Source: a virus. From it: a stretch of 22,365 bases of DNA. Location: UHGV virus genome UHGV-1636268. One strand, 5' to 3'. The translations under genes were made by a program, and so were the position numbers. Below the pieces are notes generated by a model, which was given only the letters and a program-made list of their open reading frames with translations, was not told where the DNA came from and did no database searches. Shown here one piece after another: positions 1-22,365 of this stretch; the stretch's first letter is position 1, and every line of letters starts with the position of its first letter.

Positions 1-230
1 TACCCCCACCTACCCCCACCTACCTGCACAATTCTAAAATGATTTTTCTTGCCCGACCTGATTTTTCTCTGCACGTTTTGAAAATGAAAAAACCCTTTGG
101 AGATTACCTGCACAGTTTGAAAATGAATTTTCTCTTTGGAGTTCAAAATTTTCTCTATAGATTCCTCTACAGAACTCTACCTGCACAAATCTGAAATGAA
201 AAAGCCCTCCTTACCTGAAAAATTTACCAG
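1..230. repeat. Cluster of degenerate direct repeats at window edge: tandem 10-mer TACCCCCACC x2 (1-20); ~39-bp unit CTGCAC-N2-TTTGAAAATGAA-N6-CTTTGGAG in two tandem copies (69-107, 108-146); partial copies at 22-42 and 179-207
   Basis: Read directly: ACCTGCACA at 22-30, 106-114, 179-187; (T)TGAAAATGA at 34-42, 78-87, 117-126, 191-199; CTTTGGAG at 94-101 and 133-140. No minus-strand ATG in 1-272. Confidence 0.6.
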
Positions 231-5618: not shown

Positions 5619-7985
5619 TTAATCATAAATTGTAGTCCCTTCTGGAACACATTTTACATCAAAGCCTAAGAACTTACTCACTTCGATGGGTGACACTTTA
5701 TTCCAATCTAAATGAGAAAGCAAGAAGTTTTCTTGTTTTCTTTTTGAAAGGTAGTTTGTCACCTTAATGACCATACGGTCACCAGCTTTCTTAATTTTCT
5801 TGTAAAGCTTTGTATCATTGTCAAGACAGTCTTTCAAAGTTTTCAATACACTAATAGTATAAGTGTATGCAAATGGTGCAGCAACGTATTGGATTTTACC
5901 GAACATTGCCTCTACAGCATCTTCATTTCCTTCTAGGAAGATAGTTTTGTTTGTATCCCGTGAATAGCAATAGCCACGAGAAATCTTCCTGTTATTGAAT
6001 GTAAAGTTTCTGGCAATAATCCAGCTACTTGTAAGGTCAAGAACACCATTCATGTAGATGCGTGTCATATACCTGTTATGATTAATCCAATGAACATCAG
6101 TTAAGCTGTCGTTCAAGAGCTTCTCATCTACTTCAATCCAGTCTTCTGGTATCTTTTTCCAATTTGCTTTTCGGAAAACATAGACTGTCTTTCCAATAAC
6201 ATTAGCAACTGACTTAGCTACATCTTCTGGTGATGAGCAAAAACATTCACCATCAACTGTGTCACCAATTGCCTTAATGTAAAGCTGAGGTTCTTCAATT
6301 GTGTCTAAGTCCTCTGACACCTCTTTGTAGGAGGCTACACCTTCTGCTGGAACAGCTTTCCAGAGTTTTACAACACCTCTTACAGCTTCTTTACGCTGGT
6401 AATGGTGTTCCTTATCAGACATTTTCACAATCTTTAACAAGCTTTTATCAAGTTTGTGTAGATTGATTAAATCATCTAACTCTTTTTCAGTCGAGAATAC
6501 AAACACAATCCCATTGTATCTGTGAAACAGACTTGACTCACTGGCGTAGTCTCGACATGCACCACGCAAGATTTGATTGCGACCTACAGTCTTCTCAGTA
6601 CCATTTTTATTGCGACGGTCATTAATCACGAACAAAAACTGTTCAATTTGGCTTTTACGCATTGCGCCAAAGATATTGAACATACTTGCCTCTTGAGTGT
6701 AGGAAAGTGCTGTTGCACGAATCTTACTCTCTAAAGAGTTGAACTTGACATAAGCAACTGGATTATAAAGATAATCTACTTTAGGGATATTGTTCCCGTT
6801 CCTATCAACCTTAATATTACCTTTGCCGTCACGTTCATAAATGACTGAGCCGTCTTCTGCGTAGATAATTCCACGACGAATGTTTAGCAATTCTTCTTCC
6901 AGAGAATCAAGCTTAACGCCACCCCACTCTAGCTTTGGACACACAGCATTAAACATCTCTCGTGAGTTCAAACGTAACTCAGCATAAGCCTGTGCAGCAT
7001 CCATGAGTGTAGGTTGGCTATTAACTTTCTTGATAACATCCTTTGTAATGGCTTCAGTTATCTTTTTAGTAGCCTCAATGATAACATTTTTTGTCGTGTC
7101 ATTCATCTGCAATGCTTCACGAGAAGCTGCAATAGCAACTGAACCAATAGGCATGTAGATGTTTACAAGGTCTACGCTCCTACGGAAAAATTCTGGCAAT
7201 ACTTTGAAGAAATCATCACCAAGTAACGCTTCCATGTTAACAGGGTAGGCAATGTTACCCATCACCACATTAAACTCTGTCCTGTTACCACTAGAACGCC
7301 AGCTTTGCTTATGAATCATGGCATCATAAACACCCTCTTCACGGGCAATGACGTTCATATCTGCTAATACATCGTCGTACACAATATTACTTTCTGGTTT
7401 TACAGCAAAGTATGAGTATACATTACCAGCTTCTTCAAAGAACTTTGAGATACGGTGGTCAGCAACTGCCACACGTACAGCTAAACCATTAGGTTCATTT
7501 GTTTGGTTAGTAGTAAGCTTAGTTACTTGAGGGATACCATTCTCAAGGTAAACAGAGTACTTATTAACAACACCATCAACATAGCTAGATACTGTGAATG
7601 ACTGAGCAATTGCAAACGGTGACTTTGAGCCGATGCCCATTGCACCAATGTAGTCATTAGAGTCATTCTTCGTAGAAGCCCCGTAGTTCAGATACAAACT
7701 CATTACTTTGTCATGGGTTAAACCAGTTCCAAAGTCACGGACTTCAAAGTAAGGCTCAAATCGAGTAGGCAAATGCACATGGAACGGGATGTTTTCTTTT
7801 CCAGCTTCTTTCTGAGCATCTACTGCGTTACATGACAGTTCACGAATCACTGCCCTTTCTTTAAACGTGTATACACCAGAACTCAAAAGGCTGAACATTT
7901 CAGGTGTCATTGTAATCTGTGCTTGAGACGTCTCTAAAGAAGTTGAACTCTTAATCACTTCTGCGTGGTCGTTTACCATGCGCAT
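5619..7985 (-). CDS. rIIA: RIIA-like protein with N-terminal GHKL (histidine-kinase-like) ATPase domain
   Basis: GHKL motifs near the N-terminus: N-box ELSCNAVDA, G1 box VRDFGTGL, G2 box GAMGIGSKS. Size (788 aa) and position next to rIIB match T4 rIIA. Confidence 0.8.
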   Translation of the reverse strand: MRMVNDHAEVIKSSTSLETSQAQITMTPEMFSLLSSGVYTFKERAVIRELSCNAVDAQKEAGKENIPFHVHLPTRFEPYFEVRDFGTGLTHDKVMSLYLNYGASTKNDSNDYIGAMGIGSKSPFAIAQSFTVSSYVDGVVNKYSVYLENGIPQVTKLTTNQTNEPNGLAVRVAVADHRISKFFEEAGNVYSYFAVKPESNIVYDDVLADMNVIAREEGVYDAMIHKQSWRSSGNRTEFNVVMGNIAYPVNMEALLGDDFFKVLPEFFRRSVDLVNIYMPIGSVAIAASREALQMNDTTKNVIIEATKKITEAITKDVIKKVNSQPTLMDAAQAYAELRLNSREMFNAVCPKLEWGGVKLDSLEEELLNIRRGIIYAEDGSVIYERDGKGNIKVDRNGNNIPKVDYLYNPVAYVKFNSLESKIRATALSYTQEASMFNIFGAMRKSQIEQFLFVINDRRNKNGTEKTVGRNQILRGACRDYASESSLFHRYNGIVFVFSTEKELDDLINLHKLDKSLLKIVKMSDKEHHYQRKEAVRGVVKLWKAVPAEGVASYKEVSEDLDTIEEPQLYIKAIGDTVDGECFCSSPEDVAKSVANVIGKTVYVFRKANWKKIPEDWIEVDEKLLNDSLTDVHWINHNRYMTRIYMNGVLDLTSSWIIARNFTFNNRKISRGYCYSRDTNKTIFLEGNEDAVEAMFGKIQYVAAPFAYTYTISVLKTLKDCLDNDTKLYKKIKKAGDRMVIKVTNYLSKRKQENFLLSHLDWNKVSPIEVSKFLGFDVKCVPEGTTIYD

Positions 7986-21297: not shown

Positions 21298-22033
21298 TAT
21301 AACCAACCCCTTTTAACCAGCACTTCAGGTTATTAGCATCATAATTCAGTTTCGGGTATGAGGTTACATGAAACTGCTCACCATCATAATAGACAATATC
21401 TGCAATCCATAGTCCATTCTCTTTACAGAAGTCTTTATCTGCTTTAGAGGTAATTGGATTAACTTCTACAAAACCATCTACACCCAAATCCTTTAAGCTA
21501 CCTACAATACCTTTGCAGATAACGCATGTCTCAGATACTACCACAAAAAGTTCTTGGCTTTCAAGTTCTACAATGTATTCACCAAGCTGTACTTTAGGGA
21601 GATTCGATTGCTTCATAATCTTCCCATCTGCTGCACGAACAATGGCATACCACTCTTTACCATCAACTACTGACATTCTGATAATACACTCTTGACCAGT
21701 ACGCTTCTCAATATCTGCAAGACGTTTTAAAGCTTCTTCATAATCGTCTGTGTACTTCAGGTCATTATTACGGCAAACAGCTTTCATAGCACCGTTATGG
21801 TCATGTTGTGACAGGTAAATCAAACCGTCAAGAACATATTGCAAATCTGCCTGAGCATCCAGTGTCTCAATGGGGTCTTTCTCTTCAATTGCTTTTACAA
21901 GCTCTTTTGCTTCTTCAAGCATACACAGAGATTGAGATTTTAAAGATTCCCAATACTCATCACTGTAAGGTTGCTTTTGAGTGTTTCCACAACGAAGGTT
22001 CCAGTTTTTTACTGATTCTCTTGAGTTAAACAT
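21278..22033 (-). CDS. Hypothetical protein (251 aa); N-terminal region weakly MazG-like (all-alpha NTP pyrophosphohydrolase), C-terminal domain unknown
   Basis: ATG start; the segment LEEAKELVKAIEEKDPIETLDAQADLQYVLDGL resembles the MazG/HisE-type EExxE...DxxD metal-binding helices. Product call is tentative. Confidence 0.45.
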   Translation of the reverse strand: MFNSRESVKNWNLRCGNTQKQPYSDEYWESLKSQSLCMLEEAKELVKAIEEKDPIETLDAQADLQYVLDGLIYLSQHDHNGAMKAVCRNNDLKYTDDYEEALKRLADIEKRTGQECIIRMSVVDGKEWYAIVRAADGKIMKQSNLPKVQLGEYIVELESQELFVVVSETCVICKGIVGSLKDLGVDGFVEVNPITSKADKDFCKENGLWIADIVYYDGEQFHVTSYPKLNYDANNLKCWLKGVGYNGFTEH

Positions 22034-22236
22034 TCGGACTCCTTAAAATATCTGTTAACTTTTAGCTCTCGTGTTTCAATATATTCTAGATGCTCACGTA
22101 GCTCTTGACGTTTAAGCATTAGGTGCTGCATTTGAGATTCAACAGCTTCAACCTCTTTGATTATTGACTCTCTAGCATTTGCAAGGATGCGCTCAAGTTC
22201 TTCAATCTTGCTGTCAACTTTTGCTACATGACTCAC
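22009..22236 (-). CDS. Small predicted coiled-coil protein (75 aa); start uncertain
   Basis: GTG start at 22236 with weak SD; heptad-like charged helix (EELERILANARESIIKEVEAVESQ); overlaps the downstream gene start by 25 nt. Confidence 0.3.
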   Translation of the reverse strand: MSHVAKVDSKIEELERILANARESIIKEVEAVESQMQHLMLKRQELREHLEYIETRELKVNRYFKESECLTQENQ

Positions 22237-22329
22237 AGCTTTACTTTGTTAAACATTTTATTCTCTCTCAATAGTTATCAAGCACAATTTGCTTTCATTA
22301 CCTTATGGATTCTTTTTTCAGCATCTTCA

Positions 22330-22363
22330 CTGTCTCTTATACACATCTCCGAGCCCACGAGAC
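22330..22363 (+). other. Illumina Nextera (Tn5 mosaic-end) adapter at the window terminus; non-biological
   Basis: Exact match to CTGTCTCTTATACACATCTCCGAGCCCACGAGAC at 22330-22363, running to the end of the window. Confidence 0.9.
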
Positions 22364-22365
22364 TA

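Follow-up and report, generated by a model that had tools for sequence, protein, structure and literature searches.

The window considered here is the whole stretch of 22,365 nt that was analyzed (UHGV virus genome UHGV-1636268). Using positions 1–22329 as the query, megablast against 50,697 phage records matched 280 of them, 166 with a coverage of at least 80% of the query. All of the well-covering matches were to members of Felixounavirus (FelixO1-like myoviruses of Escherichia and Salmonella) with genomes of approximately 84–90 kb, with the highest identity, 96.1%, being to phage LF82P1. Felixounavirus is a well-known genus of virulent phages. Judged from these alignments, the window is an internal piece of 22.3 kb, about one quarter of a Felixounavirus genome (approximately 86–89 kb), rather than the genome of a complete small phage. 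According to the annotation of phage fjerdesal, the minus-strand genes of this piece encode a phosphatase, spanins, a lysin, rIIB, rIIA, a nicotinamide phosphoribosyltransferase, a ribose-phosphate pyrophosphokinase, anaerobic and aerobic ribonucleotide reductases and a MazG-like pyrophosphatase, together with a few small ORFs.

The left end of the window (1–20) starts inside a tandem 10-mer, TACCCCCACC, of which the window holds two copies. The Felixounavirus LF110P4 has at least three copies of TACCCCCACC with genuine sequence continuing further to the left, and the closest relatives, LF82P1 and fjerdesal, carry a different, G-rich stretch at the same spot. Since LF110P4 has both more copies and more sequence, the left end is likewise a break of the assembly inside the genome, located in a variable, low-complexity intergenic region. 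Between positions 21 and 214, a unit of approximately 30 nt starting with TACCTGCACA is present in three direct copies (at 21, 105, and 178), which are conserved in the relatives and lie between genes, downstream of the phosphatase-like gene on the minus strand. A terminator-like hairpin was also observed on the minus strand at 243–202.

At the right end of the window, positions 22237–22329 were found to encode, on the minus strand, the first codons of an 82-aa ORF (ATG at 22256), a spacer of 21 nt and the 3′ end of a gene for a SegE-like GIY-YIG endonuclease. This stretch had initially been described as possibly genuine upstream sequence; it is indeed genuine phage DNA, although with the gene content just given it is not simply upstream sequence. 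The endonuclease portion (22278–22329, minus strand) comprises the 16 C-terminal codons (EDAEKRIHKVMKANCA) together with the stop, as determined by alignment to fjerdesal and LF82P1, by translation and by the gene coordinates of MN850605. The approximately 150 remaining codons are missing because the phage sequence of the contig ends at 22329. The full-length homolog of this cut gene possesses the Pfam domain SegE_GIY-YIG (PF19835, E = 8.9e-27) and in fjerdesal this minus-strand gene carries the annotation GIY-YIG homing endonuclease. It should also be noted that homologs of this gene (e.g., 26004–26504 of stretch L001) are labeled as NAD synthetase in several GenBank/RefSeq Felixounavirus records, including that of FelixO1 (NC_005282), with other Felixounavirus records labeling the same gene as a GIY-YIG homing endonuclease. 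Given the Pfam support for SegE_GIY-YIG, the designation as NAD synthetase seems to be a misannotation that has been propagated.

The 82-aa ORF (22009–22256, minus strand) is conserved, and in the window it is affected by a deletion of 1 nt after position 22244, where a plus-strand homopolymer of four T residues is shortened to three. This deletion cuts the ORF after seven codons to MFNKVKL followed by a stop, with the frame resuming at a GTG at 22236 (75 aa). It was absent from 214 GenBank relatives and from ten further assemblies of this region and is thus unique to the window. With the phage sequence ending 85 nt further on, the deletion may stem from a read error in a contig tip of poor support, the other possibility being a real frameshift variant.

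From position 22330 onward the window was found, by direct reading, to be identical on its plus strand to CTGTCTCTTATACACATCTCCGAGCCCACGAGAC, the 34-nt read-through sequence of Nextera libraries (22330–22363). It begins with the 19-nt Tn5 mosaic end CTGTCTCTTATACACATCT (22330–22348), which is present without mismatch in the insert-to-adapter read orientation and which is the synthetic hyperactive-Tn5 end of the Nextera kits. This is directly followed by an exact copy of the 15-nt Nextera adapter-B part CCGAGCCCACGAGAC (22349–22363) and by a final TA (22364–22365), with the tail of the window reading ...GGATTCTTTTTTCAGCATCTTCA and then CTGTCTCTTATACACATCT CCGAGCCCACGAGAC TA. The sequence CCGAGCCCACGAGAC is the complement of the read-2 primer site GTCTCGTGGGCTCGG, which identifies 22330–22363 as read-1 read-through of a Nextera library. 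The complete read-through consists of the mosaic end, CCGAGCCCACGAGAC, the i7 index and ATCTCGTATGCCGTCTTCTGCTTG; the window shares its first 34 nt identically and stops after two bases of the index, with the rest of the index and the P7 part being absent. Read on the minus strand in the frame of the endonuclease, the adapter translates as SLVGSEMCIRDS, joined to the genuine C-terminal residues.

The two terminal bases have no counterpart in the related phages and fit the start of an i7 index, bases 1–2. They are compatible with four of the indices observed in IMG/VR contigs (TAGCGCTC, TACGCTGC, TAGGCATG, and TAAGGCGA), and 2 nt cannot identify an index. On these two grounds the artifact reaches the last base of the window, 22365. 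The initial annotation had recognized an exact Tn5 mosaic end plus adapter at 22330–22363 and described it as 34 or more bases in length. The exact match and its coordinates are correct for the 34-mer, and the extent can now be refined to 36 bases (22330–22365) with the inclusion of the TA.

The 34-mer occurs as a single copy in the window and was matched in none of 100 dinucleotide-preserving shuffles; under a uniform-base model an exact copy would be expected by chance approximately 1.5e-16 times (2 × 22,332/4^34). The mosaic end is likewise present once, both strands being considered and up to three mismatches tolerated. The whole window was also screened for further adapters by k-mers (k = 11, 12, and 14) of seven sequences, namely the Nextera read-1 and read-2 read-through sequences, the P7 and P5 tails, two TruSeq adapters and the start of PhiX. 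Apart from the adapter described, this screen returned nothing other than a 12-nt chance match to the P7 tail at 6849–6860, and no adapter was detected at the left end of the window. The adapter is thus located at the extremity of the window, facing outward on the plus strand and ending 2 nt from the right end.

As the first 19 nt are a recognition end of Tn5 transposase, it could be argued that the phage DNA carries a real transposon end here, belonging to a natural IS50/Tn5 element or to an engineered Tn5/EZ-Tn5 insertion from a mutant library. The natural outside and inside ends of IS50 are likewise 19-bp recognition sequences of this transposase. However, the mosaic end is a synthetic hybrid which differs from both of them, and in the window it is followed not by IS50 (transposase) DNA but by 15 nt of Illumina adapter B, which in other contigs leads into sample indices and P7. 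The 34-mer was also without a match in a set of 5,426 complete E. coli genomes (28 Gb). In favor of an engineered insertion, a gene-essentiality study does exist for a member of the genus, Bas63, and was the only Felixounavirus mutant-library study found; the PhageMaP paper describing it, however, makes no mention of Tn5, transposase or Nextera (bioRxiv 10.1101/2024.10.10.617714). Furthermore, no deposited phage shares more than 96% identity with the window, which is thus neither a known laboratory strain nor a deposited one. A genuine transposon end is consequently considered to have a negligible probability. Equally negligible is the chance of an insertion library of the Tn5 type with a cargo starting with the Nextera read-2 primer site, as nothing in the evidence favors it and the sequence is the standard Nextera read-through string, situated at the very end of the window as it is in more than 120 other contigs.

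To determine where the phage sequence ends, a three-way alignment of the window, fjerdesal and LF82P1 was examined. The three sequences are near-identical through position 22329, after which the window changes to adapter. Beyond the equivalent of 22329 both fjerdesal and LF82P1 read TAAGTTTCTTTAGTAATAAAC... (TAAGTTTCTTTAGTAATAAACTTAATTGC...), and with T as the next genuine base and C as the first base of the adapter, the boundary at 22329/22330 is unambiguous. The sequence of the relatives past the junction (TAAGTTTCTTTAGT...) runs on through a complete SegE-like GIY-YIG endonuclease gene. A probe of 600 nt from LF82P1, centered on the junction, matched 217 GenBank records, each of them in one place, and in 215 of these the match was contiguous, defined as covering at least 80% of the length of the probe. 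The finding of one contiguous place per record indicates that there is no repeat or variable region at this point to account for an assembly break. Genomic causes of the break, for example a repeat or a homing endonuclease of patchy occurrence, were accordingly rejected.

Further assemblies were sought by exact-sequence look-up (ENA, Logan, and NCBI) of the neighboring 251-aa MazG-like/PRA-PH-type protein of the window, which yielded ten further places on contigs of 36–88 kb. All ten contain an exact copy of the 30-mer preceding the junction, which continues as TAAGTTTC... (TAAGTTTCTTTAGT...) and is followed by the adapter in none of them, and in each a complete SegE_GIY-YIG gene of 165–166 aa adjoins the gene of the neighboring protein. 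The view that the contig end is arbitrary is therefore upheld, the relatives running on past this point in 215 of the 217 GenBank records and in all ten further assemblies. The one observation named at the outset as capable of overturning the adapter assignment, that of the same sequence as genuine phage DNA, was sought at this locus in those same 215 records and ten assemblies with a negative outcome.

A different explanation would be that the contig end is the true physical end of the packaged phage genome, with the adapter marking where the DNA molecule stopped. Some phage contig ends are indeed termini, and Felixounaviruses do have defined ends: two direct terminal repeats of 581 bp were determined for Pr103Blw by PhageTerm (PMC8303462), and direct terminal repeats have also been reported for vB_EcoM_D4 and its relatives (PMC11737134). 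In the Pr103Blw record (MW481326) the repeat is annotated at 1–581 and 87841–88421, the two copies being identical, and D4 shows the same layout with a repeat that is identical at both ends and 90% identical to that of Pr103Blw. The termini of this type and the end of the window are alike in being ends of a record of this genus. They differ, however, in position and in sequence. The junction probe maps to 57,306–57,906 in Pr103Blw and to 58,497–59,096 in D4, which places the equivalent of the junction at approximately 57.6 kb of 88.4 kb and 58.8 kb of 89.4 kb, respectively, at least 30 kb from either repeat. A search for the 581-bp repeat in the window returned chance matches alone (21 nt or less, E ≥ 0.45). 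The point also lies inside a coding sequence and, as stated above, is crossed without interruption in nearly all of the GenBank records matched. As far as homology shows, both the location of the real repeats and their sequence refute a true phage terminus, and this explanation is regarded as exceedingly improbable. The original reading of the right end as a library artifact and not a biological terminus is supported by both the break in homology at 22329/22330 and the distance to the real repeats.

The same 34-mer is not confined to the window. A scan of IMG/VR for exact matches identified at least 120 stretches. Among the matches listed, 123 of 124 copies were situated 0–42 nt (median 14) from the end of the retrieved stretch, which for many is also the end of the whole contig, and all 123 faced outward. 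In these stretches the 34-mer is followed by varied 8-nt strings (CGTACTAG, GTAGAGGA, GGACTCCT, TAGCGCTC, TACGCTGC, TAGGCATG, TAAGGCGA, and further ones), which precede the constant ATCTCGTATGCCGTCTTCTGCTTG. Such a succession of constant segment, sample index and flow-cell sequence is the architecture of an Illumina library adapter and accounts for the final TA of the window as the start of an index. Two of the IMG/VR matches listed (L003–L122) have the adapter at both contig ends (L007 and L064). Most of the IMG/VR copies listed belong to a single data set, 3300045988 (IMGVR_UViG_3300045988), and their i7 indices are highly varied, suggestive of samples pooled in one study and assembled without adapter trimming.

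Within GenBank the 34-mer was present in 43 records of unrelated phages (for example MK327937.1, 110018–110051; NC_054919.1, 76726–76759; and MH000603.1, 33833–33866), including phages of Streptococcus, Bacillus, Listeria, and Staphylococcus, T4-like coliphages and others. Most of the copies in the records listed are located approximately 350 nt or less from the end of the record, with about ten lying deep inside. Several copies are internal to genomes described as complete, and some lie under annotated CDSs such as a baseplate hub/tail lysozyme. They are probably adapters which were kept at former contig ends before the record was rearranged.

Such internal copies bear on whether the adapter in the window could be an internal chimeric joint, with the original contig going on into unrelated DNA and the window having been cut at that point. 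Precedents are the one exception among the 124 IMG/VR matches listed (L013) and several GenBank records (for example MK327937 at 110,018), and a 34-nt pattern spanning the junction had no match in IMG/VR, JGI metagenome contigs or GTDB genome contigs, which would also be compatible with such a joint. Against this, a window ending 2 nt past an adapter would be a coincidence, and the great majority of the IMG/VR copies listed are terminal and outward-facing as is the copy here. By analogy with those terminal copies, the end of the window is likely to be the end of the contig itself. A chimeric joint is thus held to be very unlikely and, were it the case, would be the same artifact.

Contamination of this kind has been described previously for microbial genome databases. 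Adapters were reported to cluster approximately 10 bases from contig ends, in forward orientation where contigs end and as reverse complements at their beginnings, and to break contigs, with trimming and re-joining raising contiguity (BMC Genomics 2024, PMC11536531). The contamination in the window is alike in having a forward adapter at the contig end, facing outward, with the true genome going on beyond. It differs in that PMC11536531 screened the Illumina universal (TruSeq-type) adapter, whereas the window has the Nextera/Tn5 adapter, for which the terminal pattern was seen directly here in the IMG/VR contigs and GenBank phage records.

Positions 22330–22365 are therefore almost certainly an Illumina Nextera (Tn5 tagmentation) adapter that escaped trimming and was joined to the contig end during assembly, and no evidence contradicting an adapter artifact was found in the analyses described. 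During tagmentation, the DNA is cut by Tn5 transposase carrying mosaic-end adapters, which it attaches at the cut, and where the resulting fragment does not reach the read length, read 1 passes from the insert into the mosaic end, adapter B, the i7 index and P7. In the present case, Tn5 would have cut one phage DNA molecule just after base 22329 and attached the adapter there. The fragment was presumably shorter than the read length, in which case read 1, proceeding rightward on the plus strand, would have entered the mosaic end, adapter B and the i7 index. If the reads were not, or not fully, adapter-trimmed, the k-mers of the junction would have formed a branch off the true path at the cut site, and the assembler may have taken this branch into the adapter. 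As the adapter-only k-mers would recur across many fragments without leading anywhere in the genome, the path could not have been resolved and the contig would have stopped. The place where the contig stops is accordingly arbitrary and lies within a Felixounavirus genome, in the 3′ end of a SegE-like endonuclease gene. The artifact belongs to an ordinary class which has already been described and is not a biological feature.

The consequences are of data hygiene only. The last 36 bases (22330–22365) should be trimmed, and the right end should not be taken for a genome terminus, a packaging site or an integration junction, both ends of the window being arbitrary. A partial protein called off the right end would carry a spurious, adapter-encoded N-terminus (SLVGSEMCIRDS...) joined to the 16 genuine C-terminal residues of the endonuclease, and gene callers which permit partial genes at contig edges could emit this SLVGSEMCIRDS fusion peptide. 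The contaminant is widespread, affecting more than 120 contigs in IMG/VR and 43 phage records in GenBank, and this should be borne in mind when such collections are scanned for conserved terminal motifs.
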